The notes under the pieces: generated by a model
Told to the model about the DNA's origin: nothing
The model's database searches: none
What the model saw: only the letters and a program-made list of their open reading frames with translations
Assembly (NCBI GenBank): GCA_964565765.1
Contig: CAZMGF010000007.1
Span: 3,222-67,221 of the forward strand
Reading direction: 5' to 3'
DNA from: an uncultured Spirochaetia bacterium
GTDB lineage: Bacteria > Oederibacteriota > PGYV01 > Palsa-1178
Length of the DNA: 64,000 nt
Shown: piece after piece, positions 11,632-62,694 of the stretch
Position numbering within the stretch: position 1 is the stretch's first letter
Layout: every line of letters begins with the position of its first letter
Made by a program: the position numbers and the translations under genes

Positions 11632-11632
11632 A

Positions 11633-21153: not shown

Positions 21154-21173
21154 ATAAAGCACAATCCGTGCCA
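21154..21173 (-). promoter_or_regulatory. Sigma54 (-24/-12) promoter upstream of the barrel-TPR/lipoprotein genes
   Basis: Minus strand TGGCACGGATTGTGCTTTAT (GG-N10-GC), nearly identical to three promoters inside the flagellar cluster. Confidence 0.75.
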
Positions 21174-26361: not shown

Positions 26362-26595
26362 TTATTTTTTCTTTTTTCCTTTCAGTTCCACTTTCGTCAA
26401 ATCCGGCGTTTTTTCCACAAGCGCCCTTGCGTTTTCCTCCTGAACCTTCCTGTACACCTCCTCCCTGTAAATTGAGACGTTTTTCGGGGCAGAGATGCCT
26501 ATCCTTACTTCGCTGCCCCGGAGTTCAGCCACTGTTATTTCTATATTACCGTTTATTATTATCTTTTCTCCCGTTTTCCTTGACAGAATCAGCAT
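26362..26595 (-). CDS. csrA: Carbon storage regulator CsrA
   Basis: MLILSRKTGEKIII...VRIGISAPKNVSIYREEV...EEN, with the C-terminal extension typical of FliW-regulated CsrA. Confidence 0.95.
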   Translation of the reverse strand: MLILSRKTGEKIIINGNIEITVAELRGSEVRIGISAPKNVSIYREEVYRKVQEENARALVEKTPDLTKVELKGKKKK

Positions 26596-27019
26596 TTGCT
26601 TCTCCTCTTTTAACAAGCGGCTCTTTCAGGGAATATCCTTCCCGCATGTTTACGAACTGCCCGCCGGCCATTTTTTTGTAGTTAACAACAACAGGTGCCG
26701 CCATATTAACCGTCATATTGCTCGGGTCCTCCGGAATGGATACAAGGCCGAACAGAAGCGCGTTATCCCCGTTAAATCCAAGAAGCTCCCTGTCGTCATT
26801 GCTTAATTTTAAATCATAGCCGGGGAAAAAGTCAAACATATTAATGGTTATAAATTTTAACATCGGCTCCTCCGCCGCCGTCATCCATATAAACGGGCTG
26901 CCCGGTTTATATTCCTGAAATACAAACACCCTGTGTTCCTCAAATCCTAACACGGGTTTAATAAAGATTATTTCCCTGCTTTTTTCCATTGTTTCAAGTA
27001 CTGCGTTCGCCATAGTCAT
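26546..27019 (-). CDS. fliW: Flagellar assembly factor FliW
   Basis: IIFIKPVLGFEE...PFIWM...VSIPEDPSNMTVNMAAPVVVN...GGQFV. Confidence 0.92.
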   Translation of the reverse strand: MTMANAVLETMEKSREIIFIKPVLGFEEHRVFVFQEYKPGSPFIWMTAAEEPMLKFITINMFDFFPGYDLKLSNDDRELLGFNGDNALLFGLVSIPEDPSNMTVNMAAPVVVNYKKMAGGQFVNMREGYSLKEPLVKRGEANADSVKENGRKDNNKR

Positions 27020-34442: not shown

Positions 34443-34462
34443 ATAAAGCACAAAGCGTGCCG
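34443..34462 (-). promoter_or_regulatory. Sigma54 promoter of flgFGAHI
   Basis: CGGCACGCTTTGTGCTTTAT (GG-N10-GC). Confidence 0.78.
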
Positions 34463-34554: not shown

Positions 34555-36981
34555 TCAGGCGCAGCTTGGCAGGTGTATCGTAAATATGGTGCCTTTGCCG
34601 GATGTAACAAAATCTATCTTGCCGCCCTGTAGTTCAATGGCCTTTTTCACATTGTACAACCCGAGTCCCGTTCCGGTTTTTTTGGAGGTGTTAAAAGGCT
34701 CGAATATTTTGTTCATTATTTCTTCCGGTATGCCGTGGCCCGTGTCTCCGATTTTTATAACAAGGTCCCCGGCTTCCTCTGATGCCGCGACCGTCATTTC
34801 CCCGCCGCCCTTCATTTCATCCATGGCGTTCATATAAAGGTTCAAAAGCACCCGTTCAAACCACATTTTATCAGCTTTTACCATGCCGGTTATTTTCAGG
34901 TCCTTTACTATCCTGACATTCTCGGATTTGGCCTTGTGCGCGATAAATTTAAGGGTGGCGCCTATCGACGCTTCCGGGTCAAATTCTTCAATGGTTATCT
35001 TCATCTGTTTGGCGAATTCCATCATTTGCTTCAATATGTGGTCTATATCTATTATCTTTCCCTCCAGATTTTCAAGTATATCGTCTTTTTCCTGAACGGT
35101 GGCGTTCCTTGAATTCTGCACCGCCCCGAGCATTATGGTAAGAGGATTTCTTATCTCATGCGCGACGGCCGCCGCGAATTTTCCCATTCCCGCCAGCTGT
35201 TCACTTATAATGAGCCGCTGCTCGGTCTTGCGCAGAGTCTCGGTGGTTTCTATAAGCTGCTCGTTTTGCTTCAATATCTGGTCAAAAAGGTATGAATTCT
35301 CTATTGATTTCGCCACATGTTCCATCAGCAGTGCAAGCATTTCCACATGAAGCGGATCCATATCCTGTTTTTCAACGCATACGTAACCTATAAGCTTATA
35401 ACGGAGTTTCAGCTGGAAAACCCGGGTGACGCCCGGAATGTTGAAAACCGCGAATTTTTCATTGTTAAGAAGGGCATCCGTTGAATCCTTTCCATAATTT
35501 TCAATTTCTTCCCTGTTGATGGTATTTTTCGAGTACCGCTCAATGCGTTCTTTTTCATATCCGGTGCAGTGTATCAGCTCGAGATTCTGGGATTTTTTAT
35601 TGAAAAGCAGGAGCCCGACTTTCTCCGAGCCCACAAACTGCGAGACTATTTCCACAAAAATGCCTATAAGCTTGGTGTATTCCATGGTTGAATTTATTAT
35701 CTGGGAAATATTGATAAGGCTCCTGATGAGTATGTTTTCCTTGTTGAGCCTGCCGACAAGCATCATGTTTTTATAAATAACGCTCACTATATTTACCACA
35801 AAATCAATTATTTCCATCTTGTTTTCAAAAGTGGCCTCAATACCCCTGGCGTTATAGAGCACAAGCACGCCCAGTTTTATTTCGGCTCCCTTCAGGGGGA
35901 TTATCAGCACATTGGAAACAAGGCCTTCCGGATCATCCATATATTTTTTAACGTCATCGCCGGTAAGAAATAAAGGCTGCTGGTGCATGGCTTTTTTGAC
36001 CTGCTGTATGTGTGTTTTCAATCCGGCATCTGAAAATTTTTCAGCCCCTTCCTGTTCCTCCATGCCGCTCCTGTAAATATTGCCGCCGTCAAAAATATAG
36101 ACGGCCCCGGCCTGGGCGTAAAAATAATTCCCCACCTCCAGAAGAAGCTTTTTAAAAAAATCCCTGCTCCCGGACGGCTCGTTAAGGGTGTGCTGAAAAA
36201 GTTTCTGGATATTGGCCAGCAGCCTTTCGCGCGTCCTGTCATTAACGACAAGTATGCGCCTCTGGTGCCCGTCTACTTCCATGCTGTTTATTTCAAGGTA
36301 CAGTTTTCCTTTGACCGGCGAAACAAACTGTGCGTTCACAGGAGAATCTGAATTTTTTATGTCGGTTTTAAAGACAGCCTCTGCATTCGCCCCTATTATC
36401 ATTTCCTGGCCCACAGAGAGCATATCGTATAGGTTGGAATTCGCCTCAATAATATTGAGCCCGCTGTCTGTAAGTATTACGGCGTTAGGCATCCCCTTCA
36501 AGACCTCGTCAAGCATAACTTTGCGGACATCCGCGGTGTCATGCGCCCGTGAGTAGCTTTCTTTAAGGGCCAAATTTGCCGTTTCCAGCTCGTCGGTAAG
36601 CATTTTTACCCTCAGCATGGCCTTTATCCTGGCGCGCAACTCTTCGGGTTCAAAAGGCTTGGTTATATAATCATCAACTTTTGAGTTTATAAAACTGTCA
36701 ATCTTGTCTTTCTGGAGATGCCTTGCAGTAACCATTATAATGGGTATTTTCCTGAGCCCGGGGTCTTCTTTGATCATCCTGGCAACTTCGCCCCCCCTTA
36801 AAAGAGGCAGCATTTCGTCAAGAAGTATAAGGTCGGGTTTAAAACTGTTTATTTTTGAAAGGGCTTCTTTGCCGTCATTGGCGGTTTCAACTTCATACTG
36901 CCCGGGCTCCATGCCCAGTATTATCTGGATAATCTTGACTATATCGGGCTCGTCGTCAACGACAAGTATTCTTTTTTGCAT
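34555..36981 (-). CDS. Soluble hybrid histidine kinase REC-PAS-GAF-GAF-HisKA-HATPase
   Basis: REC ILVVDDE..LLDEMLP..TKPF; H-box AHEIRNPL; N box LLNLYMNA; DTGHGI; GTGLGL; no TM segment. Confidence 0.9.
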   Translation of the reverse strand: MQKRILVVDDEPDIVKIIQIILGMEPGQYEVETANDGKEALSKINSFKPDLILLDEMLPLLRGGEVARMIKEDPGLRKIPIIMVTARHLQKDKIDSFINSKVDDYITKPFEPEELRARIKAMLRVKMLTDELETANLALKESYSRAHDTADVRKVMLDEVLKGMPNAVILTDSGLNIIEANSNLYDMLSVGQEMIIGANAEAVFKTDIKNSDSPVNAQFVSPVKGKLYLEINSMEVDGHQRRILVVNDRTRERLLANIQKLFQHTLNEPSGSRDFFKKLLLEVGNYFYAQAGAVYIFDGGNIYRSGMEEQEGAEKFSDAGLKTHIQQVKKAMHQQPLFLTGDDVKKYMDDPEGLVSNVLIIPLKGAEIKLGVLVLYNARGIEATFENKMEIIDFVVNIVSVIYKNMMLVGRLNKENILIRSLINISQIINSTMEYTKLIGIFVEIVSQFVGSEKVGLLLFNKKSQNLELIHCTGYEKERIERYSKNTINREEIENYGKDSTDALLNNEKFAVFNIPGVTRVFQLKLRYKLIGYVCVEKQDMDPLHVEMLALLMEHVAKSIENSYLFDQILKQNEQLIETTETLRKTEQRLIISEQLAGMGKFAAAVAHEIRNPLTIMLGAVQNSRNATVQEKDDILENLEGKIIDIDHILKQMMEFAKQMKITIEEFDPEASIGATLKFIAHKAKSENVRIVKDLKITGMVKADKMWFERVLLNLYMNAMDEMKGGGEMTVAASEEAGDLVIKIGDTGHGIPEEIMNKIFEPFNTSKKTGTGLGLYNVKKAIELQGGKIDFVTSGKGTIFTIHLPSCA

Positions 36982-37054: not shown

Positions 37055-37792
37055 CTAGAATATATTAAGGACTTTTTCAACGGAGAGTTTTGCCTTTATT
37101 TTTGAAATGGCCTGGCCGTGTATCTGGGATATCCTGGCCTCTGTCAGATCCATCGCCCTTGATATCTCCTTGAGGGTGAATCCTTCATAATAATACATTG
37201 ACAGCACCGACCTTTCACGGATATCAAGAGCCGTGTCAATTATCCTGGCCAGCAGCTCCCTGCGTTCCATGGATTCCGCATTATCATCGGCGTAAACCGG
37301 GCCGCCTCCGGAATTTGACGAAAAAAATTCGTCTATGGAATAAACCTTATTTACGTGCAGGCCGTCTATGAGCTTGTAATATGCCGTCATATCCAGTCCC
37401 ATTTCCTGAGCAACCTGCTCGTCCGTGGGGTTCGAACACCCGCGCTCCATCAGCGCTCTGTAGGCTTTTTCAAGCCTTGAAGTTTTTTCTTTTACCGATC
37501 TCGGGGCCCAGTCGGCGTTTCTTAAGTAGTCCATTATACTTCCGTATATCCTGAAATAGGCGTAAGTGACGAATTTTATATCGCGCCCCGGGTCGTACTT
37601 TTCAACGGCCTCCAGGAGCCCCATTGCCCCTATATTAAAAAGGTCGTCTTTACTGGCAAGCGTGGAGGCAAAATAAACCCTTTCCACCACGAACCTGACC
37701 AGGTTTATATATTTTTTCGCTATTTCATTCCGTGCCGCTGTGCTTTTGTTTTTTTCGTACTCTTCCCAGACGCCCTTTTCTTCTTCATTCAT
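37055..37792 (-). CDS. fliA: Flagellar sigma factor sigma28 (FliA/WhiG)
   Basis: GAMGLLEAVEKYDP..KFVTYAYFRIYGSIMDYLR..DWAPRS; YYYEGFTLKEI...TEARISQIH. Confidence 0.95.
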   Translation of the reverse strand: MNEEEKGVWEEYEKNKSTAARNEIAKKYINLVRFVVERVYFASTLASKDDLFNIGAMGLLEAVEKYDPGRDIKFVTYAYFRIYGSIMDYLRNADWAPRSVKEKTSRLEKAYRALMERGCSNPTDEQVAQEMGLDMTAYYKLIDGLHVNKVYSIDEFFSSNSGGGPVYADDNAESMERRELLARIIDTALDIRERSVLSMYYYEGFTLKEISRAMDLTEARISQIHGQAISKIKAKLSVEKVLNIF

Positions 37793-37801
37793 TTTGGCAC
37801 C

Positions 37802-37981
37802 TCAGTTGCTGTTTTGTTTTCGTTCCAGTATTTTTCCAAGCACCGCCATAACCGCGAAAGTCGCGGCGTAAAAAACCGCGGACGCAGCCAGTGTGCCGGC
37901 CCAGTTTTTGTGAAAAATCACGCCCAGGAGCACGCAGGAGAAAAAAGCCGCTGGAGGCGCGAAGAAAAATATTATTTTCAT
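37802..37981 (-). CDS. 59-aa two-TM membrane protein (below the ORF-track cutoff)
   Basis: MKIIFFFAPPAAFFSCVLLGVIFHKNWAGTLAASAVFYAATFAVMAVLGKILERKQNSN; GGAG SD; fills the gap between the activator and fliA; its stop overlaps the fliA SD. Confidence 0.7.
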   Translation of the reverse strand: MKIIFFFAPPAAFFSCVLLGVIFHKNWAGTLAASAVFYAATFAVMAVLGKILERKQNSN

Positions 37982-37991
37982 CCGGCTTCTC

Positions 37992-39404
37992 CTAAAGCCC
38001 GTATTCTTTCATCTTGTTATAAAGCGTCTTATAATCCACTTTCAGCGCCTCCGAAACCTTTGTCTTGTTCCATTTAAATTTGTTAAGGGCCCTGACTATC
38101 ATTTCACGCTCTATCTGCTCCCTTGCCCTGCCGCAGGCGTCCTTTAGCGGCAGTATCTCCCCGGAGTCACTCCCGCCCGCCCCGCCTTCCATGCCCGGCT
38201 GGCCGTAATGTTCGCCGCCCGCCACCCTGTCAGTAAGGCTCTTTGGCAGGTTTGCTTTTGTAATATAAGTGTCGGCCATTATTATGGCGTGCTTTATTGT
38301 GTTTTCGAGTTCCCTCACGTTGCCCGGCCATGAATAATCCATAAAAATCTGTTTTACTTCATCATCAATTTCTTTCACATTTTTTTCAAATTTAAGGTTA
38401 TATTTCATTATGAACCTGCCAGCCAGGAGAAGCACATCGTCCCCCCTGCCCCGCAGCGGCGGCAGTTCAAGGTAATATTCATTTATCCTGTGGAAAAGGT
38501 CGTCCCTGAATTCCCCTTTTTTCACAGCTTCATTAAGGTCCACATTTGTCGCGGTAATAACGCGAATATCCAGGTCTATGGTCTTGCGCCCCCCGATTCT
38601 GACTATCTTGCGTTCCTGAAGGACCCTTAATAATTTTTTCTGCACATTAAGCGAAAGATTGCCTATTTCATCAAGAAACAGCGAGCCGCCGTTGGCAAGC
38701 TCGAACCTGCCTGTTTTCGCCTCTGTGGCTCCGGTAAACGACCCTTTTTCATGGCCGAAAAGTTCCGATTCGACGAGATTATCCGGCAGTGTGGCGCAGT
38801 CTATCGAAACAAAAAGCCCCTCTTTTCTCTGGCTGTTCCTGTGTATGGTCTTGGCGACCAGTTCCTTGCCGGTTCCGGATTCACCCAGCAAAAGCACGGA
38901 AACCTCATAACCGGCTATTTTCCTCGCAGTTTCCACAACTTTGGAAAAGCCCGGATGCCCGGTTATTATTTCTTCCTCGGAGTCTTCGCCTTTTATTTTT
39001 TTACGGAGAAGTTTAATTTCCGTTTCCAGTTCCCTTGTCTTAAGGGCATTCTGCACCGTTACCCTGAATTTTTCCTCATCAACGGGTTTTACAAGATAAT
39101 CATAGGCCCCGAGTTTTGTCGTTTCCACCGCAAAACTTACATTTTCATAGGCTGAAAGTATTATTACAGGTGCCTTGAACCCCCTCTCGTTCATCTGTTT
39201 CATAACATCCACACCCGACATACCCGGCATTGTAATATCAAGTATCACCATGTCAAAGGCTGTTTTTTCTATTTTAGAAAGGCAGGCTTCGCCGTTTGAC
39301 GCGCTTTCAAAATCGTAGCCGAATTTTTTTACCAGGCTGCTTATATACCAGACTATCTCAGGGTCGTCATCCACTATAAGTATCTTATGCGTTTTTGGAT
39401 CCAT
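37992..39404 (-). CDS. NtrC-family sigma54 enhancer-binding protein (REC-AAA+-Fis HTH), likely the flagellar activator
   Basis: REC with ILDITMP; GESGTGKE; ESELFGHEKGSFTGA; WPGNVREL; C-terminal HTH WNKTKVSEALKVDYKTLYNKM. Confidence 0.92.
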   Translation of the reverse strand: MDPKTHKILIVDDDPEIVWYISSLVKKFGYDFESASNGEACLSKIEKTAFDMVILDITMPGMSGVDVMKQMNERGFKAPVIILSAYENVSFAVETTKLGAYDYLVKPVDEEKFRVTVQNALKTRELETEIKLLRKKIKGEDSEEEIITGHPGFSKVVETARKIAGYEVSVLLLGESGTGKELVAKTIHRNSQRKEGLFVSIDCATLPDNLVESELFGHEKGSFTGATEAKTGRFELANGGSLFLDEIGNLSLNVQKKLLRVLQERKIVRIGGRKTIDLDIRVITATNVDLNEAVKKGEFRDDLFHRINEYYLELPPLRGRGDDVLLLAGRFIMKYNLKFEKNVKEIDDEVKQIFMDYSWPGNVRELENTIKHAIIMADTYITKANLPKSLTDRVAGGEHYGQPGMEGGAGGSDSGEILPLKDACGRAREQIEREMIVRALNKFKWNKTKVSEALKVDYKTLYNKMKEYGL

Positions 39405-39472
39405 TTTTCCTCCATGTATTTCCGTTTTTTTTGGATTCACGGGGCGCATTAATAATAATCATTTTCCCGCCA

Positions 39473-43400: not shown

Positions 43401-43670
43401 TCACTTTACAAGGTCCGGAATGGACCTTATCAGATTTGTGGAAAAAGAAACCACCATCTGTATCATCCACGGCCCGAAAAATATTATACAGAGCAAAGAT
43501 ATAAGGATTTTCGGTACATAAGTAAGCGTCATTTCCTGAATTGATGTTACGGCCTGAAATATTGATATGGAAAGCCCCAGGATAAGTCCAATTACCATAA
43601 TAGGAGAAATTGTTATAAATGTGACAATTGCGGCTGTTTTCAGTATCATAAGCACCTGCGAAGAGCCCAT
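43401..43670 (-). CDS. fliQ: Export gate protein FliQ
   Basis: ISIFQAVTSIQEMTLTYVPKI...FGPWM. Confidence 0.95.
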   Translation of the reverse strand: MGSSQVLMILKTAAIVTFITISPIMVIGLILGLSISIFQAVTSIQEMTLTYVPKILISLLCIIFFGPWMIQMVVSFSTNLIRSIPDLVK

Positions 43671-43715
43671 TTTTCCTCCTTATAATAAATATATTAAAAT
43701 TATTGCATTTATACC

Positions 43716-43735
43716 ATATTGCACAAAGTATGCCG
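43716..43735 (-). promoter_or_regulatory. Internal sigma54 promoter of fliQR-flhBA-activator-fliA
   Basis: CGGCATACTTTGTGCAATAT (GG-N10-GC) in a 255-bp AT-rich gap between fliP and fliQ. Confidence 0.7.
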
Positions 43736-43773
43736 GAGAATGTTGTATAAAAATAAGGGGTAATATTATTATA

Positions 43774-43814
43774 ATGGAAACTTTTCCATGCTCAAATATG
43801 GAAACAATTCCATA
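43774..43814. promoter_or_regulatory. Tandem palindromic enhancer (candidate UAS)
   Basis: ATGGAAA-CT-TTTCCAT (43774-43789) and ATGGAAA-CA-ATTCCAT (43798-43813). Confidence 0.7.
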
Positions 43815-43925
43815 GTTTTTTATTTAATTTTGTATGCAGAAATTGGCGTTGATTATTAAGAAACTATATTATTGCATGTAATAATTCAGCTGCAGTCAGA
43901 CCTTAATAACCCGCATTTGGTTTCG

Positions 43926-44723
43926 TCAATGAAAACTTTTCAGAAGGGCCTCTGTAACAAGCCTCCATCCGTCGATAAGTACAAAAAGAAGTATTTTAAA
44001 AGGCAGAGATATCATAATAGGCGGCAGCATCATCATTCCCATGGACATTAATATTGACGCGACTATCATGTCAACAACAAGGAAGGGTATATATAATATA
44101 AAGCCGATTTCGAATCCCACCTTCAGTTCGCTCAAAACAAAGGCCGGAGTCGCCACAAAAAATGATATGTCTTTGCGTGTTTTTGGTTTTTCCTTAACCA
44201 TAGAAAGAAAAACCGAGAGGTCCTCGTCGCGGGTCTGGGAGAGCATGAATTTCTTCAGAGGCTGTGTTCCGCTGTCCAGGGCCTGCTCCCATGTTATCTG
44301 TTTTGCGTAATAAGGCTTAACCGCGTTCTCGTTTATCTGCTGTATCACAGGGAGCATGTTAAATATGGTGAGAAATACGGCGAAACCGACCAGCACCTGG
44401 CTGGGAGGCAGCGTCTGCAGCCCTATGCCCTGCCTTAATATGGTAAGGACTATTATTATCCTTATAAAAGATGTGCAAAGCACGAATATTGCCGGTGCCA
44501 GTGAAAGCACTGTAAGCACCACCAGCGCTTTTACGGCGCCGGATAATTCTTTTTCGCTTGACGGCTCGGCTATATTAATGGCGACTGAATTTCCCCGGGA
44601 ATTTACCATTCCGGAGCCGTTTGACGCCCCTACGCCCACGTTAAGATTCAACGAATCCGCGGCAAATGCCGGGGTAAAAAGCGCCATAATCGCCGCTGCA
44701 GCCAGCAATATCCTGGGGTTCAT
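43926..44723 (-). CDS. fliP: Export gate protein FliP
   Basis: Start MNPRILL overlaps the fliO stop; TSFIRIIIVL; LPPSQVL; MGMMMLPPIMISLPFKILLFVLIDGW. Confidence 0.96.
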   Translation of the reverse strand: MNPRILLAAAAIMALFTPAFAADSLNLNVGVGASNGSGMVNSRGNSVAINIAEPSSEKELSGAVKALVVLTVLSLAPAIFVLCTSFIRIIIVLTILRQGIGLQTLPPSQVLVGFAVFLTIFNMLPVIQQINENAVKPYYAKQITWEQALDSGTQPLKKFMLSQTRDEDLSVFLSMVKEKPKTRKDISFFVATPAFVLSELKVGFEIGFILYIPFLVVDMIVASILMSMGMMMLPPIMISLPFKILLFVLIDGWRLVTEALLKSFH

Positions 44724-45109
44724 CGCGTGCCGCCTTTTTTTGCCTTCTTCGCCTCTCCGAGCGTGTCGAGCAGTGTAATTGAATCCCGGCAAATGGCAAC
44801 AACATATTCCCTGCCTCTTGCCTCTATTATTGCGGCTTTCTTGTCCCCGAGTATGGTTTTTACCGACTTTAATTTTATCTCATCATTGAATGCCGCGGGG
44901 TTCAAATTGTACTTTTTCATTATTTTTACCGCGGCGTAAGCAAGCCCCGTCATCACGGCAAGCGCTACCAGTATTTTTACCGCGTACACCGCGGTCAGGT
45001 AGCCTGTGCCTTTATATTCATAACCTGCGTCCTTTGCGGCGGGTACGGCTCCCAAACAAAATCCCGCCATAAGGGCCGTTATTAACAGGACCGCCGCTGT
45101 TTTTTTCAC
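44720..45109 (-). CDS. fliO: FliO export-gate chaperone
   Basis: One TM followed by LGDKKAAIIEARGREYVVAI...ITLL; lies between fliN and fliP. Confidence 0.8.
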   Translation of the reverse strand: MKKTAAVLLITALMAGFCLGAVPAAKDAGYEYKGTGYLTAVYAVKILVALAVMTGLAYAAVKIMKKYNLNPAAFNDEIKLKSVKTILGDKKAAIIEARGREYVVAICRDSITLLDTLGEAKKAKKGGTR

Positions 45110-45447
45110 AGTTTTCCCGCCTTTATCGGGGCCCCTGCCGCAAGCTCGGTGATGCGTACGCCGTACTTCTCCCCTATCACAACCACTTCACCCCGCGCGA
45201 ACAGGTTTTCATTGATGTAAAAATCGACCGGTTCTCCGGCCACCTTGTCAAGTTCTATAACGGTCCCCACGTCAACGTTAAGCGCCTTTTCAAGGGTCAT
45301 TTTTGTGTTGCCCAGCTCCACAGTCGCTCCCAGGGTTACATCAAGGATTTTTTCTATCTTTTCCCTTGTAATTGAATCCTTCGCCTGAGCCTGCTCCGGA
45401 GAGCTGTTTTCTATCTGCGCAAATTCAGCCTTTTTCACATCATCCAT
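45106..45447 (-). CDS. fliN: C-ring protein FliN
   Basis: ILDVTLGATVELG...GEPVDFYINENLFARGEVVVIGEKYGVRIT. Confidence 0.93.
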   Translation of the reverse strand: MDDVKKAEFAQIENSSPEQAQAKDSITREKIEKILDVTLGATVELGNTKMTLEKALNVDVGTVIELDKVAGEPVDFYINENLFARGEVVVIGEKYGVRITELAAGAPIKAGKL

Positions 45448-46357
45448 TTTCTTTTCCTCCTTTTATGCAGGCGATAACCTTGACCGCCATTTTTTTTCCG
45501 CGTAATCCGGGCATCGCGAGAAATTTTGCCTTGCCTCCTATTGCAACGGTAAGGGGCTTGTATATGTCATGTTCGAGCGTCACGCAGTCCCCGGGCTGTA
45601 TGTCAACCAGGTCCTTAAGCTTTATATTTATGCCGCTTAATACCACCTTGCATTCAACCGGCATATTTTTGAGCCTTCCCGCCTTTACTTCCATGGTTTC
45701 CTGACTGGAATTCTTTTTTTCCTGCTGGGGCGGTTTTTTTATCCCTTTTTTAAGGACTGGTTCAAGCAGGAACGAAGGGAACCCCATCACAAAACCACCC
45801 TGATTCTCCGCAAAATTTACATCAAAGTGTATTGTGGTGACAAGGTCGTCAACCATATGAATCTCAAAATTTTCCGCTTTTTTTATCACTTCCTTGATTT
45901 CAAAAGAGTACCTGAGGTTTTTTGGAAGGGCCCTTTCAAAATGTTTCAGTATCCTTTCACATGTCCTGAAAAGGATCCTCTCTTCCATGCCCGTAATCTC
46001 CTGGCGTTCCTCGCTTTTTTTTGAGTCGCCGCCCAGAAATCCGTCCGTCATAAGGTAGCTTAAATTCCTGTCTATCTGGATGAATATTTCCCCTTCCATG
46101 CCCTCAATGCCAACCCTGGCTATTACGACCGGCATCTTTAGTTTCTTGGCCGCCTGGCCGAATTTATTGACGACAGTTTCCCTGTACTTTACGGCAAACG
46201 GCCTCTTAAAATGGCTTGAAAAAGCGAATGACAGCATTTCTGTAAAGCTCTCCGAAAGAAATTTTATAGACTTCAGTTCATCCGGCTGCAGGAGTATGTT
46301 TGACTTAAAATCGTACAGCTTGACACCCGTGTCTTTTTTTTCCGCAAGCGCCATCAT
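45440..46357 (-). CDS. fliM: C-ring protein FliM lacking the N-terminal CheY-binding peptide
   Basis: VKLYDFK, FliM middle domain and C-terminal SpoA domain present; no LSQxEIDxLL. Confidence 0.88.
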   Translation of the reverse strand: MMALAEKKDTGVKLYDFKSNILLQPDELKSIKFLSESFTEMLSFAFSSHFKRPFAVKYRETVVNKFGQAAKKLKMPVVIARVGIEGMEGEIFIQIDRNLSYLMTDGFLGGDSKKSEERQEITGMEERILFRTCERILKHFERALPKNLRYSFEIKEVIKKAENFEIHMVDDLVTTIHFDVNFAENQGGFVMGFPSFLLEPVLKKGIKKPPQQEKKNSSQETMEVKAGRLKNMPVECKVVLSGINIKLKDLVDIQPGDCVTLEHDIYKPLTVAIGGKAKFLAMPGLRGKKMAVKVIACIKGGKENG

Positions 46358-46373
46358 TTTTGCCCTCCTTTTT

Positions 46374-46910
46374 TTACTGCATCATCAGGGCGTTGAAATA
46401 TATGTTCACTACCTTAATATCAGGATCCAGGTCGGCAATTGAGGCTATTATCTCCTGTTTCATGTTCTTTTTCCCGTCCGGCATGCTAAGCTGCTGTGTG
46501 GTATAGCTGCTAAGTTTCTCCAGTATTGTGTCCCTGTACATGGACTCTTTTTCCTTTATAGCCTTTTCGACTTCTTTTGCGTCCTTGACTTCCATTGTTA
46601 TGTCGGTCTTAAGATACCTTGTGGCTTCCTTGTTTGCAAGGTTGACAATAAATTCACCCAGCTTGTAATACATTGTTTTTTCCTTTTCTTTCGCTTTTTC
46701 CTTAACCGGAAGGCTTCCGGGATCCTTTCCCGCCTCTTTTGCCGCAGCGGCACCGCCCTGATTCTGCGGCGCCATAAACTTCACCGTCAGAAAAGACGAC
46801 AGGAAAGCTCCGGCGACCATAATTCCAGCCAGTACCGCTATTCCCGGAAGTCCGCCCTTATTTTCCACCGGGACAATTTTTTCTTTTGGTTTCTGCGCCT
46901 CATCAGCCAT
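46374..46910 (-). CDS. fliL: Basal-body associated FliL
   Basis: One TM; EFIVNLAN...YLKTDITME...YRDTIL..LS...VVNIYFN. Confidence 0.9.
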   Translation of the reverse strand: MADEAQKPKEKIVPVENKGGLPGIAVLAGIMVAGAFLSSFLTVKFMAPQNQGGAAAAKEAGKDPGSLPVKEKAKEKEKTMYYKLGEFIVNLANKEATRYLKTDITMEVKDAKEVEKAIKEKESMYRDTILEKLSSYTTQQLSMPDGKKNMKQEIIASIADLDPDIKVVNIYFNALMMQ

Positions 46911-46911
46911 T

Positions 46912-47721
46912 TCATTTACCTCCCCTGAATGTTTTTTTCATTACAGCAATCAATACCCTGTCGTTTTTTTCGTCGCCGCCTTTGCCGCCGAAAAGCGGCC
47001 GCCACTGCCCGTAACCGGTAAGCGAGAGCCTCTCCGGCTCAAGCATGCTTGTGTTCTGAAAAAAACTTATTACAGATACCGCCCTTGCCGCCGACAGTTC
47101 CCAGTTATTTTTAAAAAGGCTCTCTGCGGGAGGCGTAGTGGAAGTATATCCTTCGACGGATATTTCATTTTTAAGCGGTTTCAGCATGCCCCCGATATCA
47201 GTAAGTATTGCCTTCGCGTCTTCCGTCAGCACGGCTTCACCCTGCCTGAAGAATATCTTGTCCGTTATGATTACGATATAAATGTTCCCCTCTTTTTCCT
47301 TTATATCTATTATACCCTGCAGTTTTTTGTTCATTTTAAGGTCTATAAGCTGCTGCTTTAACTCGGAAAAAATCGCGTCATTCGGGGATGTCCCGCTGGA
47401 TTCACTGGTCATTTTGAATCCTCCGGTTTCTCCTTCCTTTTTACTTACAACAAAAGGCTGCACCGACATGTTTTTTTCCTCTGAAATCACGGTCTGCCCT
47501 TTTTTTCCCTCCATTTCTCCCATAAATCCGCTCTTGATGGAAAGGGCTATTTCCTTGAATTTCGCCAGATTAAGCACGGACATTGAATACATCATTATAA
47601 AAAACGCAACAAGCAGCGTCATCATATCCGCGTATGTCAGGAGCCAGCGTTCTTCATTGTCATGATCATGGCTCTCTTCATTGAGTCCGGATCCTCCGCC
47701 TGGCGGCGTTTGCGATGCCAT
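46912..47721 (-). CDS. motB: Stator B subunit MotB
   Basis: WLLTYADMMTLL (conserved Asp32); OmpA-like domain NWELSAARAVSV. Confidence 0.95.
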   Translation of the reverse strand: MASQTPPGGGSGLNEESHDHDNEERWLLTYADMMTLLVAFFIMMYSMSVLNLAKFKEIALSIKSGFMGEMEGKKGQTVISEEKNMSVQPFVVSKKEGETGGFKMTSESSGTSPNDAIFSELKQQLIDLKMNKKLQGIIDIKEKEGNIYIVIITDKIFFRQGEAVLTEDAKAILTDIGGMLKPLKNEISVEGYTSTTPPAESLFKNNWELSAARAVSVISFFQNTSMLEPERLSLTGYGQWRPLFGGKGGDEKNDRVLIAVMKKTFRGGK

Positions 47722-47746: not shown

Positions 47747-48559
47747 TTATTTTGTATCTTTTGCCGGACTTTTCTTGCTTCTGCCCTCGTCCCTCTGCTT
47801 GGGCGCGATAAAGGACAAAAGCCGCTCCTCTATTATCCTGGGATTGTCCCCTGCCTGTATCGAAAGCAGGCCTTCAAGCATGATCCTTCTTTCCGTAACT
47901 TCCTTGGCGCTTATCTTTTTCAGCTTATTGGCAAGTGGCAGATAAACAAGGTTTGCCATTGAAACGCCGTAAAGCGTCGCTATAAAAGCAGAAGCAATTG
48001 CCGGCCCCATTGTGGACGGATCCGACAGGCTGGAGAGCATATTCACCAGCCCCATGACGGTTCCTATTATTCCAAGGGTGGGCGAGAACCCTCCGAGCTT
48101 TGAGAAGAAATCCTGCGATTCCGCGTGCCTCTGCTTCAAAAACACTATGTCGGTCTCCATAATCAGCCTGATATGATTCATATCAACACCGTCCACAAGC
48201 AGCTGGACCCCCTTGCGCATGAACTCATTTGTTATATTCTTTGTCTGTTTTTCAAGCACAAGCAATCCGTCACGCCTTACCTGCCTTGAGAAATTCACCA
48301 GCGTTTTTATTATTTCCGGGTAATTTGCCTCGGTGTTAAAAAACGCCTTCTTGATATATGAAGGTATCGCCATGACCTCTTCTTTTGTCAGGCCTATCAT
48401 GGCGGCCCCGAAGGTGCCGCCGAAGACAAGCAGGATCGGCCCCATTTTTACGAACATGGAGACATTTACGCCGGATCCGCCCTCCATCCCTTCAATAATC
48501 ACCGAACCAATGAGGGAAGCCCATGCAAGGACAAGCCCCAGTGATGTGATGATGTCCAT
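47747..48559 (-). CDS. motA: Stator A subunit MotA
   Basis: RRDGLLVLE; SPTLGIIGTVMGL; AFIATLYGV. Confidence 0.95.
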   Translation of the reverse strand: MDIITSLGLVLAWASLIGSVIIEGMEGGSGVNVSMFVKMGPILLVFGGTFGAAMIGLTKEEVMAIPSYIKKAFFNTEANYPEIIKTLVNFSRQVRRDGLLVLEKQTKNITNEFMRKGVQLLVDGVDMNHIRLIMETDIVFLKQRHAESQDFFSKLGGFSPTLGIIGTVMGLVNMLSSLSDPSTMGPAIASAFIATLYGVSMANLVYLPLANKLKKISAKEVTERRIMLEGLLSIQAGDNPRIIEERLLSFIAPKQRDEGRSKKSPAKDTK

Positions 48560-51659: not shown

Positions 51660-52127
51660 CTAGTTTAATCCCGCGCCCTGCGCCCTGAATTTAAAAACCG
51701 CGTACTCGTCCGATGCCTTTTGTTCATTCAGATTCTCAGCGTCTTCATGTACCTTTTCATCCCGTTCCCTTATTTTTTCATATGTAAGTGTTTCTTTTCC
51801 GGCTTCTGTCAGGTCCCTGTGCAATTCCTCGAGCTTTGCCTCAAGGGATCTTATCTCCTCTTTTTTTCTTTTTATAAATTCACCGATGCATACAAGATAT
51901 GTGTGGTAGGATTTTATTTCATTAAGATTCTGCGGCGTACGCCTTCCTTCGGAAACGGTTTTAAGCATCGTGTGCCGCATCAGCATCTCTTTTTCAACAG
52001 CTATGTTAAGTTTTATCTTTTCCACGCCGATCTGTGTATTCAGGGTGTCACACTGCTTTTTTATTTCCTTCTCCGTGAGTTCCTTATTTTTCAGAATCTT
52101 TTCAAACCTGTATTTAAAGCTGCTCAT
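51660..52127 (-). CDS. fliJ: Export ATPase stalk FliJ
   Basis: FKYRFEKILKNKELTE; coiled coil; EQKASDE; follows fliI. Confidence 0.85.
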   Translation of the reverse strand: MSSFKYRFEKILKNKELTEKEIKKQCDTLNTQIGVEKIKLNIAVEKEMLMRHTMLKTVSEGRRTPQNLNEIKSYHTYLVCIGEFIKRKKEEIRSLEAKLEELHRDLTEAGKETLTYEKIRERDEKVHEDAENLNEQKASDEYAVFKFRAQGAGLN

Positions 52128-54049
52128 TTTTTAGCCTCCTGTCTCATAATATTTTCAAGTTCTGCCAGGCTTCCGGCCGGCTCGCTCTTTTCGTCGATTC
52201 CCTGCCTTAAAAACGAATTCAATTTTTCAATTATATGACGCGCGTGGTCCACTTTTGGATTTGCACCTTTTTTATACGCGCCAATATTAATAAGATCCTC
52301 CATCTCCTGCATTATTGAGACTGTTTCCCTGGCTTTTCCCGCCGTTTTAATCTGGGCGTCGTCCGTAATGTCGGCCATCAGCCTGCTAATTGATGAAGTC
52401 ACATCAATTGCCGGATAATGATTCCGCGTGGCAAGCTTCCTTGATAGAACTATGTGTCCGTCCAGAATAGATCTCACAGAATCCGCCACCGGCTCGTTCA
52501 TGTCATCGCCTTCAACAAGCACGGTGTAAAACGCCGTTATTGATCCGCCTTTTACAAAATTCCCGGAACGCTCAAGTAATTTTGGAAGCTTGGTAAAAAC
52601 AGAAGGCGTGTATCCTTTTGTGGAAGGCGGTTCTCCGGTGGCAAGCCCTATTTCCCTTAGAGCGGTCGCGTAACGTGTGACAGAATCCATCATTAAAAGC
52701 ACATTGAGCCCCATGTCCTTAAAAAACTCGGCTATCGTGGTCGCCGCCATGGCGCCGTGAACGCGTTCAAGGGCGCTCCTGTCAGATGTGGCCGCTATGA
52801 CCACCGCTCTTTTTAAACCCTCTTCCTGCAGGTCCTTTTCAATAAAATCCTTTACTTCCCTGCCCCTCTCGCCGATGAGCCCTATTACAATGACATCAGC
52901 CGATGTGTTGCGCGCCATCATTCCCATAAGAGATGATTTCCCTACCCCGCTGCCGGAAAATATACCCATTCTCTGCCCTTTTCCGCATGTAAATAAGGAG
53001 TCTATGGCGCGTATCCCCGTGGTTAGTTTATCCTTGATTCTGTCCCTTTCAAAAGGCGTTGTCTGTATCCCGTAAATGGAGCGCTTTTCCGTAAATTTTA
53101 TTGCCGGCCCGCCGTCAATCGGGTTTCCAAGCCCGTCCATAACACGGCCAAGCATATCTTTTCCAATCCCGAGTTCAAACTGCTGCTTTAAATCAATAAC
53201 CCGGCTGTTGGGGCCCACGCCCTGCATTTCATCAAGCGGCATCAGCAGGTTCTTGCCCTCCCTGTAACCTACAGCTTCAGACTTTATCCTTTTCTTGTTG
53301 TCTTTGGTGAATATGTCGCACATGTCTCCTATAGAGCACTCAAGCCCCTCGACCTCAATAACGCTGCCGACTATTTCCTTAACAACTCCTTCGACAGTGA
53401 CAAGGCTTGTTTCAGGAGTTATTTCATTTCCCGTCAGTATCTTTTCCCCGGCATTTTTAATCTTTTCATTTATGGTCGCGTCAACGGCCCTGCTTCCGGA
53501 TTCTACTATGCAGCCGCCTTTTGAAAGCGTCCTGTCCTTTTTAAGTGTTATTCCCTTGCGTGATTTTTCAAGCTCAACCGCAAGGCCGCTTGCCGCAAGG
53601 GCGTCAAAGTCAGTTTCGTTCAGATAAACCTCGATTTCCTCGTGCGCGGCAAAATTGGCCATCGCATCTTCAACTGTTTTTTTTATCTGTCCCTCGTCGC
53701 TTTTACCTCCGGCAAGAATGTTTCTGAGTATATCCATCATATCTTGTACATTCGCCCGTCTGCGCTTTGCCTCAAGGGCGTCATATTTTTTCAGTACGCC
53801 CGAGAGCAGTGTCTTAAAACCCTTCCTGGCGTTTTTTTCCGCAAGAATCCTGGCCTCATTTGTCTGCGCAAGAAGCATTTTTTCAAATTCAAGCGCGGCT
53901 TCTTCATAACCGCGCGTGTATTCCGCCGACTTTGTCCTTAAAGCGGCCGGCAAAATTTCGTCTATTACCGCCCCCATTCCGGCCGCTGCCGAAATCATGG
54001 CGCTGGATGACGGCTTTTTTGTGTTCTTTATTATCCTATACAACGACAT
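52124..54049 (-). CDS. fliI: In-frame FliH-FliI fusion (export ATPase with its regulator)
   Basis: aa 1-205 are FliH-like (VYLNETD...DRTLSKGGCIVESGSRAVDATI). From about aa 217 the sequence is FliI (VEGVVKEIVGSVIE; FSGSGVGKS; LLMMDSVTR). No stop codon at the junction. Confidence 0.9.
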   Translation of the reverse strand: MSLYRIIKNTKKPSSSAMISAAAGMGAVIDEILPAALRTKSAEYTRGYEEAALEFEKMLLAQTNEARILAEKNARKGFKTLLSGVLKKYDALEAKRRRANVQDMMDILRNILAGGKSDEGQIKKTVEDAMANFAAHEEIEVYLNETDFDALAASGLAVELEKSRKGITLKKDRTLSKGGCIVESGSRAVDATINEKIKNAGEKILTGNEITPETSLVTVEGVVKEIVGSVIEVEGLECSIGDMCDIFTKDNKKRIKSEAVGYREGKNLLMPLDEMQGVGPNSRVIDLKQQFELGIGKDMLGRVMDGLGNPIDGGPAIKFTEKRSIYGIQTTPFERDRIKDKLTTGIRAIDSLFTCGKGQRMGIFSGSGVGKSSLMGMMARNTSADVIVIGLIGERGREVKDFIEKDLQEEGLKRAVVIAATSDRSALERVHGAMAATTIAEFFKDMGLNVLLMMDSVTRYATALREIGLATGEPPSTKGYTPSVFTKLPKLLERSGNFVKGGSITAFYTVLVEGDDMNEPVADSVRSILDGHIVLSRKLATRNHYPAIDVTSSISRLMADITDDAQIKTAGKARETVSIMQEMEDLINIGAYKKGANPKVDHARHIIEKLNSFLRQGIDEKSEPAGSLAELENIMRQEAKK

Positions 54050-55037
54050 CAGGGTTGCCCCCTTCCAGGACTATTTCTCCGCTGGCTTCGAGTTTCCTTA
54101 CAGCCGCGAGCACCTTCTGCTGGGACTCCTCGACTATCTGCCTTTTCAGCGGCCCGGTTGCTTCCATATCGTCCTTTATCATTTCCGCCCCGCGCTCGGA
54201 CATATTTGTGAATATTTTTGTCTTTAATTCCTCCGATACGCCTTTAAGAGCTATGACAAGCTCTTTTCCCTCAACTTCACGGAGGATCCGCTGCATGTAC
54301 CTGTCTTCAATGGCCTTTAAATCCTCAAACCTGAATAGTTCTTTTTTGATAAATGAGGCCATTTCAGGTGCGTCTTTTTCAAGGATGTCAATTATCTCCT
54401 TGAGCTGTTTTTTATCGACTTCGTGCAGTATTTTAATAAGTTTTTCAAGGCCGTTAATCTTTATCTCCTTCTTTTTTACAAGCTTGTCCCTTAAGATGGA
54501 AATTATTTCATTTATCATTTCCGTATCGGGCTCGGTTTTTTCAATAACCCCTATGCGCCTTGCTATGTCGGCCCTGGCGTCTTTGGGCAGGAAGCTTAAA
54601 ATATCGGCCCCTTTTTCAGGCGACGTAAAGGCCACTATCACAGCTATTATCTGCGCAGGCTCATTTTTTATCGCCTCAAAAATTTTTTCGGTTTCCAGTT
54701 CCTCGATAAACTTGAACGGCCCCTCGTCGGGCCTTAAAAAAGATATCATTTCATCAGCTTTTTTGGAGTCGTAAAGGTTTGAAAGTATTTCCCTGGCAGC
54801 CGGATAGCCGCCGGTGCTTTTTTCGTCCGCTTCCACCATTGACAGTGTAAAATCCCTTATTATTCCAAGACGCTCTTCCATTGATATCTCTCCGAGGTTC
54901 ATCACCTCGGCCACAACATGGTTGACCTCGTTCTCATTTAAGTGTTTGAGGATGTCCTTTGAGAATTCCGGCCCAAGCGCGACTATGAGTTTTGCAACCT
55001 TTGCGAAATCTTTTCCTTTTTCAATTGTTGCGGGCAT
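54036..55037 (-). CDS. fliG: Rotor/switch protein FliG
   Basis: KVAKLIVALG; LFRFED (MFxF motif); torque helix NMSERGAEMIKDDM. Confidence 0.94.
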   Translation of the reverse strand: MPATIEKGKDFAKVAKLIVALGPEFSKDILKHLNENEVNHVVAEVMNLGEISMEERLGIIRDFTLSMVEADEKSTGGYPAAREILSNLYDSKKADEMISFLRPDEGPFKFIEELETEKIFEAIKNEPAQIIAVIVAFTSPEKGADILSFLPKDARADIARRIGVIEKTEPDTEMINEIISILRDKLVKKKEIKINGLEKLIKILHEVDKKQLKEIIDILEKDAPEMASFIKKELFRFEDLKAIEDRYMQRILREVEGKELVIALKGVSEELKTKIFTNMSERGAEMIKDDMEATGPLKRQIVEESQQKVLAAVRKLEASGEIVLEGGNPDVVV

Positions 55038-58149: not shown

Positions 58150-58169
58150 ATAAAGCACATACCGTGCCG
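58150..58169 (-). promoter_or_regulatory. Sigma54 promoter of the basal-body operon
   Basis: CGGCACGGTATGTGCTTTAT (GG-N10-GC). Confidence 0.78.
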
Positions 58170-60908: not shown

Positions 60909-62681
60909 CTAATTGGCTGTCTTTTTAAATCCCTGTAAAGCTTTTTGCTTTGACCTTGCGTCCATTATATATCTTCTGACTTTTACCGCGTAATCACAAT
61001 CAGGATCAAGTTCGTCAATATTTTTCCAGTAAATAACTGCCGCGTCAAGATTGCCGTCGGTGTACTTTTCAATGCCCTTATAATAATAATCCTTTGTTTT
61101 TAATGCTATGAGTTCTTTCAGGGTGGCCAGAATATCTGTCGCTTCCTTATTTGCCGGGCATATGCCTGAAATTGTCCGAAGCCTTTTTACTCCTTCAATA
61201 ACGGAAGCGTCGTTGGCAACCTCGGCTTTTGCCTTGTTTATATCATCCCAGATTTCACTTTGTTTATACTTTGTCCTGGCTATATACTGTTTTATCTTTG
61301 TATTCTTCGGATCCTTTTCAAGCCCCTGCTCCCAGGAGGCAAGCGCTTTGACATAGTCGCAGTTGTTATAATACTTGAGCCCTTCCTTGAAATATTTTTC
61401 GCCCAGTTTTGTCATGCCTTTGTTTGCCTTTAATTCCTTCGCGTCGCCTATCCATGTATCAATATCCTTATACGCCGGCGCAATGTTTTTTACTTCGTTC
61501 CATTTATTAAGGGCGCATTCAAAGTCAAACGCCTCATAGCATTGCATTCCTTCGTTATATAAATCATCCGCTTTTTTAACCCCGCCGCCTGTTGATATGA
61601 GCTTTTTTACCCTGACCAGCATAAGATCAATGTCTTTATAATTTGGCGCCATTGATTTAACATCCGACCAGTCAGCCAGGGCCTGGTTGTAATTTCCGGC
61701 ATTAAAAGCCTCTTCCCCGTTTCTGTAATTCTGATAAGCCAGAAACTCCGTTAATTTCTGATAGTTCTTTTTCTCGACTTCGTCCTGGGCTTCGTATAGC
61801 AGCTTTATGCTGACAAGATTTGTTATGCCCAGGTCTCCCTTTGAAGCAAAAGCGTAATCAAAAGAAAGTTTTTCTAAAGTAATCCCCAGGCCTGCCGAAA
61901 GCCCGGATAACGCGCCAAGCGCCTGAAACGAATTATTAATCGCGTAGCCGCACCTCACGGAGAGAATCTTAAAAATGGTTAATTCCGCGCCAACGGCGCC
62001 TGAGGTGCCGTAAATGCCCGAATATATTAAATCCAGATCCGCCAGCATTTTATAATCTTTAATATTAAAAAGATTTATTCCAACCCCGGCCCTTAAATTA
62101 TACCCGCCGCTTAAAGATGTATCAAGATTTTGTAAAGCGGCCCCTGCGGAAAACATATCGTTGATTTTCAATAAAAGCCCCAGGTCGAAGCTCAGCATAT
62201 AATCGTTGTAACCGGCCATGGAATAGTTTGAAAAGTTTATCCCCAGGCCTGCCGACAAAGCTTCCCTTACCGGCATGCCGTAAGCAATCGTCGCCGAAAG
62301 ATTATATGGATTAAGGTCATTAAACAAATTCGCCCCGCCGGCGTCGCGCTGGACAAAGGTTCCAAAATTAGTATAGGTGAACATCGCGCCAGCCGAGCCC
62401 GGCCCGGCCGGAATGACCAGATTGCCGTACTGAAAAGATGAATCCATGAGCCATTTATCATAAGCAATATCAATTTCAACCATTTTTATATTTGAGAGCC
62501 CGGCCGGATTGTAATAAATGGCAGAGGCGTCGTCCGCAATGCCGGTAAAGGCGCCTGCAAGGGCGGCCGCACGGGCTCCTGTGTTTATATCAAGTGTAGA
62601 GAGCGCGGCTGATTGAGCGGGTGCAGCGTTAAGATACGGGCATACAAACACCGTAAGCAATATGATTATAGTTTTTTTCAT
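60909..62681 (-). CDS. PorV/UPF0164-like beta-barrel with C-terminal TPRs
   Basis: GARAAALAGAFTGIADDASAIYYNPAGL; FDYAFASKGDLG; repeated TPRs. Confidence 0.85.
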   Translation of the reverse strand: MKKTIIILLTVFVCPYLNAAPAQSAALSTLDINTGARAAALAGAFTGIADDASAIYYNPAGLSNIKMVEIDIAYDKWLMDSSFQYGNLVIPAGPGSAGAMFTYTNFGTFVQRDAGGANLFNDLNPYNLSATIAYGMPVREALSAGLGINFSNYSMAGYNDYMLSFDLGLLLKINDMFSAGAALQNLDTSLSGGYNLRAGVGINLFNIKDYKMLADLDLIYSGIYGTSGAVGAELTIFKILSVRCGYAINNSFQALGALSGLSAGLGITLEKLSFDYAFASKGDLGITNLVSIKLLYEAQDEVEKKNYQKLTEFLAYQNYRNGEEAFNAGNYNQALADWSDVKSMAPNYKDIDLMLVRVKKLISTGGGVKKADDLYNEGMQCYEAFDFECALNKWNEVKNIAPAYKDIDTWIGDAKELKANKGMTKLGEKYFKEGLKYYNNCDYVKALASWEQGLEKDPKNTKIKQYIARTKYKQSEIWDDINKAKAEVANDASVIEGVKRLRTISGICPANKEATDILATLKELIALKTKDYYYKGIEKYTDGNLDAAVIYWKNIDELDPDCDYAVKVRRYIMDARSKQKALQGFKKTAN

Positions 62682-62694
62682 TATTTATCCACCG

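Follow-up and report, generated by a model that had tools for sequence, protein, structure and literature searches.

The N-terminal peptide of the flagellar motor protein FliM is the high-affinity docking site for phosphorylated CheY (CheY-P) and, in polar flagellates, the docking site for FlhG as well. In the textbook view it couples chemotaxis signalling to the motor, and it also couples the motor to the control of flagellar number by FlhG; in Escherichia coli and Salmonella, the N-terminal segment of FliM holds this peptide for CheY. The EIDAL motif of FliM binds CheY-P and FlhG alike (bioRxiv 10.1101/2022.04.21.489128; PMC12826062). Here we analyze a flagellar gene cluster on a stretch of 64,000 nucleotides of contig CAZMGF010000007.1 (hereafter the window, 64 kb), in which FliM lacks this peptide. 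The FliM of the window shares with canonical FliM proteins (Salmonella/E. coli, Thermotoga maritima, Helicobacter pylori, Vibrio; structures 8UMD, 2HP7, 4FHR, 4GC8 and 7DM9) the FliM plus FliMN_C architecture, the CheC-like fold of the middle domain, the gene position between fliL and fliN, and the GG of the GGxG loop. It differs from them in lacking the N-terminal segment of ∼25-30 residues that holds LSQxEIDxLL and in reading GGDS for GGxG; its identity to them is only ∼17-26%, and it falls in a separate cluster in sequence space.

Two other described systems bear on this comparison. FliY (Bacillus subtilis, T. maritima; 4HYN) belongs to the C ring and to the FliM/CheC fold family and can bear the EIDAL peptide, but it has no counterpart here, where FliN has 113 amino acids (aa) and the SpoA/FliN domain only. 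In Shewanella putrefaciens CN-32, the lateral flagellar system has a FliM, FliM2, that reportedly lacks the CheY-binding N-terminus. These lateral flagella are outside chemotaxis control and carry a PilZ-only brake, MotL (PMC8203827). The window appears to resemble this system in its proton-type MotAB and in a putative stand-alone PilZ effector gene inside the flagellar cluster (PMC8203827). In contrast, the Shewanella lateral system is a second one beside a chemotactic polar flagellum, whereas here a single flagellar cluster is seen, one typical of a whole candidate phylum; and motL follows motAB, whereas the PilZ gene here follows fliS.

The elements at and around fliM are the following:

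45440-46357, minus strand: fliM, 305 aa, N-terminus MMALAEKKDTGVKLYDF
within the FliM protein: disordered N-terminus of ∼14 residues, middle domain (residues 15-204), FliN-like C-terminal domain (residues 228-297)
46358-46373, minus strand: fliL-fliM spacer of 16 nt, AAAAAGGAGGGCAAAA, read directly and followed by ATGATG
46374-46910, minus strand: fliL, assigned by Pfam
45106-45447, minus strand: fliN, 113 aa, a plain FliN with FliMN_C at residues 33-102, overlapping the fliM stop by 8 nt

The fliL stop codon (46374-46376) lies directly 5' of the spacer, within which the Shine-Dalgarno sequence AGGAGG (46364-46369) is placed 6 nt 5' of the fliM ATG. The upstream in-frame translation consists of two stops, 8 codons before the start, and then CSKKRRAKMMALAEKK; no ATG, GTG or TTG occurs between these stops and the start. 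An earlier or alternative start is thereby ruled out, and because of the in-frame stops, the lack of a start codon between them and the ATG, and the 16-nt spacer after fliL, the N-terminus MMALAEKKDTGVKLYDF is real. When FliM is aligned to Salmonella FliM (8umd_C), residue 9 pairs with Salmonella residue 32, and therefore FliM here is ∼23 residues short at its N-terminus, the CheY-binding peptide among them. A scan of all six frames of the whole window with the patterns [LIVMF][STND][QE]x[ED][ILVM][DE]x[LIVMF][LIVMF], S[QE]xE[IVL]D and [QE]xE[IVL]DxL[LIVMF] gave zero matches to an LSQxEIDxLL-like peptide. An earlier reading of this DNA, made from the letters alone (the sequence-only reading), had claimed that fliM starts 16 bp from fliL with the Shine-Dalgarno sequence in between and that the peptide is truly absent; the in-frame stops, AGGAGG and the six-frame scan bear this out.

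Apart from its N-terminus, FliM here is genuine and structurally ordinary. The Pfam FliM model (PF02154) matches at 66.7 bits against a gathering cut-off of 27, residues 15-204 covering model positions 1-191 of 192, and FliMN_C (PF01052, the SpoA domain) matches residues 228-297 at 57 bits. The AlphaFold2 model has a pLDDT (predicted local distance difference test) of ∼80-90 for residues 20-204, while residues 1-19 are of low confidence and disordered. In Foldseek comparisons the middle domain superimposes on the crystal structures 4FHR_A, 2HP7, 4GC8 and 7DM9 with TM(target) of 0.84-0.88 and root-mean-square deviations of 2.5-2.9 Å, so that it has the CheC-like alpha/beta/alpha fold. The gene lies between fliL and fliN in the flagellar operon, in the window as in related loci. 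It is probably transcribed: parts of fliM, motA and fliO have identical counterparts among metatranscriptome contigs.

The docking peptide is not carried by another component of the C ring either: none is found on FliM, FliN or FliG, as would be expected of a CheY-independent motor. FliN has neither a CheC-like domain nor an N-terminal docking peptide, and a FliY-type protein is not present in the window, in agreement with the claim of the sequence-only reading that FliN (113 aa, FliMN_C only) has no FliY-type copy. The N-terminus of FliN, MDE[VI]KKAEFAQ[IL], is conserved in relatives and was at first a candidate docking peptide, but it resembles an ordinary FliN element instead: an A-x-F-x-Q-L element presumably precedes the FliN domain in Salmonella, the PDB alignments used here beginning after it.

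A survey of FliM N-termini across the lineage, which the sequence-only reading had suggested, shows that the docking peptide is missing from all 14 FliMs of the clade, which come from independent assemblies with the same operon order and range in identity from 37 to 100%; every one scores negative with a position-specific scoring matrix (PSSM) for the peptide. A word-indexed search returned 11 FliM homologues of 46-100% identity, the complete ones being 296-309 aa long with the same short N-terminus, and a HMMER search of 1.84 billion cluster representatives returned 7 with E<1e-30, one a fragment and none with an N-terminal extension. Below the clade the HMMER score falls from 207 to 108 bits and the identity from 37% to 26%; the first FliMs past this gap are ordinary proteins of 328-335 aa with 22-30 additional N-terminal residues. 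No conserved N-terminal element stands in place of the peptide among the clade FliMs. The clade is small and sharply separated, and it belongs to the candidate phylum FCPU426, related to Goldbacteria. Its relatives in public genomes include the FliM of 'candidate division FCPU426 bacterium bog_1181' (83% identity) and that of a genome labelled 'uncultured Spirochaetia' (90%), and the organism is found in peat and wetland metagenomes. FCPU426 16S sequences cluster with Goldbacteria, a group that has flagellar genes, unlike its sister groups (PMC7031533). As judged from these comparisons, the missing peptide is an old, clade-wide trait. The 90% identical relative comes from contig CAYUDX010000012.1 (GCA_964443355.1; our loci L002/L004), whose operon is the same as that of bog_1181; its label 'uncultured Spirochaetia bacterium' is probably wrong.

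Its age and its spread over the clade show that the trait does not stem from annotation. A start called wrongly, an error of assembly, a frameshift, or a flagellar locus in decay and without function might be invoked on the strength of the general risk in metagenome assembly, and some FliMs with short N-termini in other lineages could be start miscalls, but this explanation is effectively refuted by the in-frame stops 8 codons 5' of the start together with the strong, well-spaced Shine-Dalgarno sequence, by the confident fold model, by the matching RNA-derived contigs, and by a set of ∼40 flagellar genes that are all intact. The same architecture recurs in independent JGI, ENA, NCBI and Logan assemblies: across the 8-9 related contexts the gene order is identical, down to the member with 37% identity, and so are the fliH-fliI fusion and the activator/fliA/kinase block described below.

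The genes that would feed signals to the peptide are likewise out of view. We scanned with Pfam every open reading frame (ORF) that reaches 110 aa and is not an opposite-strand shadow of a longer ORF, as well as the two end-truncated frames; in the window these scans gave no CheA (Hpt/CheW-like), CheW, MCPsignal, CheR, CheB, CheC/X/D/Z or single-domain REC protein, as the sequence-only reading had noted for che genes, and no FliMN_C or CheC match beyond FliM and FliN. There is no che gene in the 8.5 kb past the right end of the window (on the near-identical contig L006), and che, flhF and flhG genes are likewise missing from the 8-9 related contexts, which comprise ∼100 kb of non-redundant sequence around the cluster. 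Neither an SRP-type GTPase nor a MinD/ParA-type ATPase is encoded anywhere in the window. The slot of flhF and flhG, the flhA-fliA interval (within 37055-39449, minus strand), is filled instead by two other genes:

37992-39449, minus strand: response regulator with REC, sigma-54 activator and HTH_8 domains (Pfam), in the same place in all related loci
37802-37981, minus strand: conserved two-helix membrane ORF, 56-60 aa

This arrangement raises the question of whether the peptide was lost mainly because FlhF/FlhG control of flagellar number and placement was lost, with little bearing on chemotaxis. The sigma-54 activator occupies the flhA-fliA slot in every clade member, and in S. putrefaciens EIDAL is both necessary and sufficient for FlhG binding (PMC12826062). 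On the other hand, E. coli and Salmonella are without FlhF and FlhG (PMC12826062), yet their FliM keeps a segment of ∼30 residues before the conserved core, and therefore the absence of FlhG alone does not explain the loss of the peptide. We regard a loss driven mainly by FlhF/FlhG as quite improbable, although it would be compatible with the explanation that we prefer, to which we now turn.

Without the peptide, CheY-P could not be concentrated at the C ring by the high-affinity tether, and the interaction with FlhG through the same peptide would likewise be lost. It follows that this motor most likely does not respond to canonical CheY signals and would run in its default direction. Two sets of genes within the cluster could provide other forms of control:

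21835-22209, minus strand: a PilZ protein of 124 aa that stands alone (PF07238, 39.4 bits), encoded after fliS at the end of the cluster
34555-36981, minus strand: hybrid histidine kinase, 808 aa, directly after fliA (REC 5-120, HisKA 600-658, HATPase_c 704-805)

The PilZ protein, a candidate receptor of cyclic di-GMP (c-di-GMP), may act as a brake or clutch on FliG, FliM or MotA, like MotL in the lateral system of S. putrefaciens, while transcription of flagellar genes, and not rotation, would fall to the REC hybrid kinase together with the REC/sigma-54 activator. Taken as a whole, this combination (an ordinary FliM in a clade without the peptide, a CheY-blind motor, modulation by PilZ, and a transcriptional role for the kinase and activator) is our best explanation, and we lean modestly towards it.

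Several observations weigh against this explanation. In E. coli and T. maritima, CheY-P also touches the FliM middle domain and FliN with low affinity, and CheY that is abundant or otherwise recruited could act without the tether. The window, the 8.5 kb beyond it and the related loci are all the sequence covered, so elsewhere the genome may hold a CheY, a che cluster or another FliM/FliY. The function and target of the PilZ protein are read from motifs, gene position and analogy only; sigma-54-like matches in the window (24 against 32 expected) are not above chance; and the metatranscriptome contigs are of low depth, so that DNA carry-over is possible. Finally, a chemoreceptor clade has been matched to three FCPU426 genomes, with Goldbacteria receptors nearby (preprint 10.1101/2025.06.24.661292), which argues against a phylum-wide absence of chemosensing.

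These points lead to the chief rival, namely that chemotaxis is retained through a rewired interface: the che system would be encoded elsewhere, and CheY, a CheY-like protein or an adaptor would reach the FliM middle domain, FliN, FliG or a new partner. The secondary CheY contacts on the FliM middle domain and FliN of model organisms are in keeping with this, and the elements of FliG related to switching are largely kept (the proline of helix MC, LFRFED for MFxFED, and one glycine of the Gly-Gly linker). The frequency of FliMs without the motif points the same way. We applied the PSSM, trained on 86 strict motif instances, to 136 full-length FliM cluster representatives outside the clade: the peptide is present in 107 and missing or degenerate in 29 (∼20%), a share that looks too large for every one of them to lack chemotaxis; 13 of these 29 have short N-termini, part of which may be start miscalls. 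The chemoreceptor genes reported in FCPU426 and Goldbacteria (10.1101/2025.06.24.661292) would also fit, but the FCPU426 genomes of that preprint may fall outside this clade. Against a rewired interface stand the lack of any che gene in the window, in the adjoining 8.5 kb or in the related loci, and of any conserved substitute element at the N-termini of the clade FliMs. We hold retained chemotaxis to be a tentative alternative, possible but short of probable. The novelty of the finding has two limits: FliMs without the motif are not rare, as the survey shows, and a CheY-blind motor with a PilZ brake is already known.

A further reading takes both the old loss and the receptors at face value: the only flagellar system of the phylum would long have been without the CheY/FlhG peptide while chemoreceptors persisted, sensory control reaching the motor by an undescribed route. 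Within it, a CheY-like protein might dock on FliN, on FliG or on the relaxed GGDS loop of FliM; or a chemosensory pathway might feed c-di-GMP to the PilZ protein, giving navigation based on speed (chemokinetic) and not on reversals. We consider this reading unlikely.

The PilZ protein is the best candidate for control of the motor after assembly, by analogy with known brakes. Its RxxxR motif (RKHRR, aa 10-14) and DxSxxG motif (DISLSG) are intact, and six full-length homologues of 50-73% identity all keep RxxxR and, except for P0168 (HISVSG), also DxSxxG. The gene lies directly 3' of fliS both in the window and in the sole relative context fetched, a 328-kb JGI contig (L015); one homologue shares a 137,798-bp contig with a clade FliM (P0004), and two are named 'c-di-GMP-binding flagellar brake protein YcgR' by JGI. 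Like the YcgR, MotI(DgrA) and FlgZ brakes, this putative motor effector has a PilZ domain with RxxxR and DxSxxG and is encoded among flagellar genes; unlike YcgR, it is a single-domain protein of ∼124 aa without the N-terminal (PilZN) domain.

The sequence-only reading had pointed to PilZ and ComFB genes nearby and had proposed control of rotation by c-di-GMP or by the hybrid kinase. That interpretation is borne out in part: a non-chemotactic motor, as it suggested, is plausible. The PilZ gene is indeed the last of the cluster, and with its motifs intact, control by c-di-GMP through this protein is plausible. ComFB proteins have been proposed as cyclic-dinucleotide receptors, but the ComFB gene is not a neighbour, since ∼19 kb separate it from the end of the flagellar cluster and 43 kb separate it from fliM:

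2481-2798, minus strand: ComFB (83 bits), beside a MerR-type regulator (2802-3086, minus strand)

No link between the ComFB/MerR pair and motility is visible in the window. On the other side, ∼6 kb past the right end of the window, contig L006 carries a gene for a HAMP plus class III nucleotidyl cyclase protein (3345-4907), a possible second-messenger input near the flagellar cluster.

The other half of that proposal, rotation controlled by the hybrid kinase, is unlikely. The kinase does not have the features of a CheA, since the Hpt and CheW domains are both missing, and in related loci it always accompanies fliA and the REC/sigma-54 activator. Because of these constant partners, the lack of CheA features and the promoters at flgB and flgF, we assign it to transcription: it is likely the partner of the sigma-54 activator, in the manner of FlgS/FlgR or FlrB/FlrC. 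The systems FlgS/FlgR (Campylobacter, Helicobacter), FlrB/FlrC (Vibrio) and FleS/FleR (Pseudomonas) likewise encode a kinase and a REC/AAA+/HTH_8 activator among flagellar genes, with sigma-54-like promoters before the rod and hook operons; the kinase here differs in its extra N-terminal REC domain and in a long middle region without domain assignment. The candidate promoters are:

58154-58169, minus strand: sigma-54-like promoter CGGCACGGTATGTGCT, just 5' of the flgN-like/flgB operon
34447-34462, minus strand: sigma-54-like promoter CGGCACGCTTTGTGCT, at the annotated flgF start (a GTG, possibly miscalled), flgF operon
21158-21173, minus strand: sigma-54-like candidate, before a TPR gene past the PilZ region

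The three are mutually alike (YGGCACG-N4-TGTGCT), the flgB and flgF sites being near-identical. Only their positions and this shared extended sequence speak for them.

We also compared the contact between FliM and FliG, where the sequence-only reading had seen altered motifs on both sides. The relevant elements are:

46022-46033, minus strand: GGDS of FliM (aa 109-112 in alignments), at the GGxG motif that contacts FliG
54036-55037, minus strand: fliG, encoding 333 aa with the N, M and C domains
54651-54662, minus strand: EPAQ of FliG (aa 126-129 in alignments), at the EHPQ site; the later arginine of EHPQR is kept

Both replacements are as described there. In FliM the first two glycines of the loop are kept and the last is a serine, where the aligned sites read FGGDGR in Salmonella and Vibrio and LGGKGS in H. 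pylori. In 143 diverse representatives of FliM clusters outside the clade, GGxG occurs 130 times and GGx followed by a residue other than G 11 times; within the clade, S, A, Y or L stands at the last position, and G in just one of 14. At the FliG site, EHPQ is found in T. maritima, Aquifex aeolicus and Salmonella, while the clade has EPAQ in the window and its 90% relative and ESPQ, EHPQ, ERPQ or EEPQ in others. Because the FliG site varies within the clade, EPAQ is a recent, local variant of a sub-clade. One relative (L011) combines the same short, GGDS-type FliM with the canonical EHPQ, and therefore EPAQ is not coupled to the change in FliM. Co-variation of GGDS and EPAQ is ruled out by this relative and by those with ESPQ, ERPQ and EEPQ. 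Judged by the aligned sites, EPAQ thus does not belong to any clade-wide altered interface, and the earlier claim of such an interface was overstated: where FliM meets FliG, both GGDS and EPAQ are variants that are tolerated, and neither is evidence for a different interface.

The torque helix of FliG, SERGAEMIKDDMEATGPLKR, keeps its charged residues, which, like the arginine of EHPQR, align with the T. maritima motifs. As with the FliM middle domain, the parts required for rotation look normal here. The Gly-Gly linker and the MFxF hinge of FliG are both linked to switching in model organisms. At the linker (aa 193-200) the window reads ING and relatives read NA, KG or DG, compared with VGG in T. 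maritima, MGG in Salmonella and LEG in Aquifex; at the hinge (∼aa 235-240) the window reads LFRF.

A complete and apparently expressed flagellum without the peptide, in an uncultured peat and wetland lineage, is a natural experiment on a motor that lacks the textbook link, and a test case for c-di-GMP/PilZ braking taking over everyday control of the motor. The finding would become more interesting should these genomes turn out to have kept chemoreceptors. Whether the peptide is present could be used as an inexpensive metagenome marker for likely steering of flagellated organisms by CheY, and with about one in five of the 136 surveyed FliM clusters lacking the motif, a comparison across genomes with che content would be informative beyond this window.

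The flagellar cluster itself encodes the stator, hook, filament and L/P rings. All of its genes lie on one strand, in the order flgN-like, flgB, flgC, fliE, fliF, fliG, fliH-fliI fusion, fliJ, fliK, flgD, flgE, flbD, motA, motB, fliL, fliM, fliN, fliO-R, flhB, flhA, REC/sigma-54 activator, small membrane ORF, fliA, REC hybrid histidine kinase, flgF, flgG, flgA, flgH, flgI, flgM, flgN, flgK, flgL, fliW, csrA, flagellin, fliD, an unknown gene, fliS and the PilZ gene. Of these, fliJ, fliK, flgD, flgE, flbD, fliO-R, flhB and flhA were assigned through precomputed Pfam matches of their orthologues in related loci. The remaining features are:

21835-58117, minus strand: whole flagellar cluster, ∼36 kb
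46912-47721, minus strand: motB, stator (Pfam)
47747-48559, minus strand: motA, stator (Pfam)
52124-54049, minus strand: fliH-fliI fusion, with a FliH domain (78-199) followed by the ATPase N-terminal, catalytic and C-terminal domains

The fliH-fliI fusion is kept in every clade member and is therefore not a frameshift artefact; we know of no described FliH-FliI fusion. In the window and in relatives it has 636-643 aa (relatives: L001 2316-4241, L009 2124-4055, L011 2462-4372, L013 2414-4342, L014 2495-4414). The fliP-fliQ junction is a hot spot for insertions: the window has only a gap of ∼250 nt (43670-43926), while the inserts in relatives (L001 12545-14287; L009 12478-13206) encode a HisKA_7TM-PAS histidine kinase in one and a methyltransferase in another. 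Directly 5' of the single flagellin gene (273 aa) lies a fliW-csrA pair (26362-26616 and 26546-27019, both minus strand), an arrangement of the Bacillus/spirochaete type of translational control module. Between fliD and fliS, a conserved, Pfam-negative gene of 209 aa (22737-23366, minus strand; L015 8810-9439) may encode a flagellar chaperone specific to the lineage or a protein like FlaG; the record of its orthologue gives DUF8042.

The cluster is flanked by an M17 peptidase and by cell-surface proteins with type IX secretion sorting, PorV-like, FlgD_ig and TPR domains. Large proteins, secreted or at the surface, that have FlgD_ig and C-terminal type IX sorting domains, together with PorV-like/UPF0164 outer-membrane proteins, are encoded at 3574-5952 (plus strand), 10627-14905 (minus strand), 60909-63999 (minus strand) and L006 4939-8559. 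These flanking sorting-domain and PorV-like proteins suggest a secretion system like the type IX system in this phylum.

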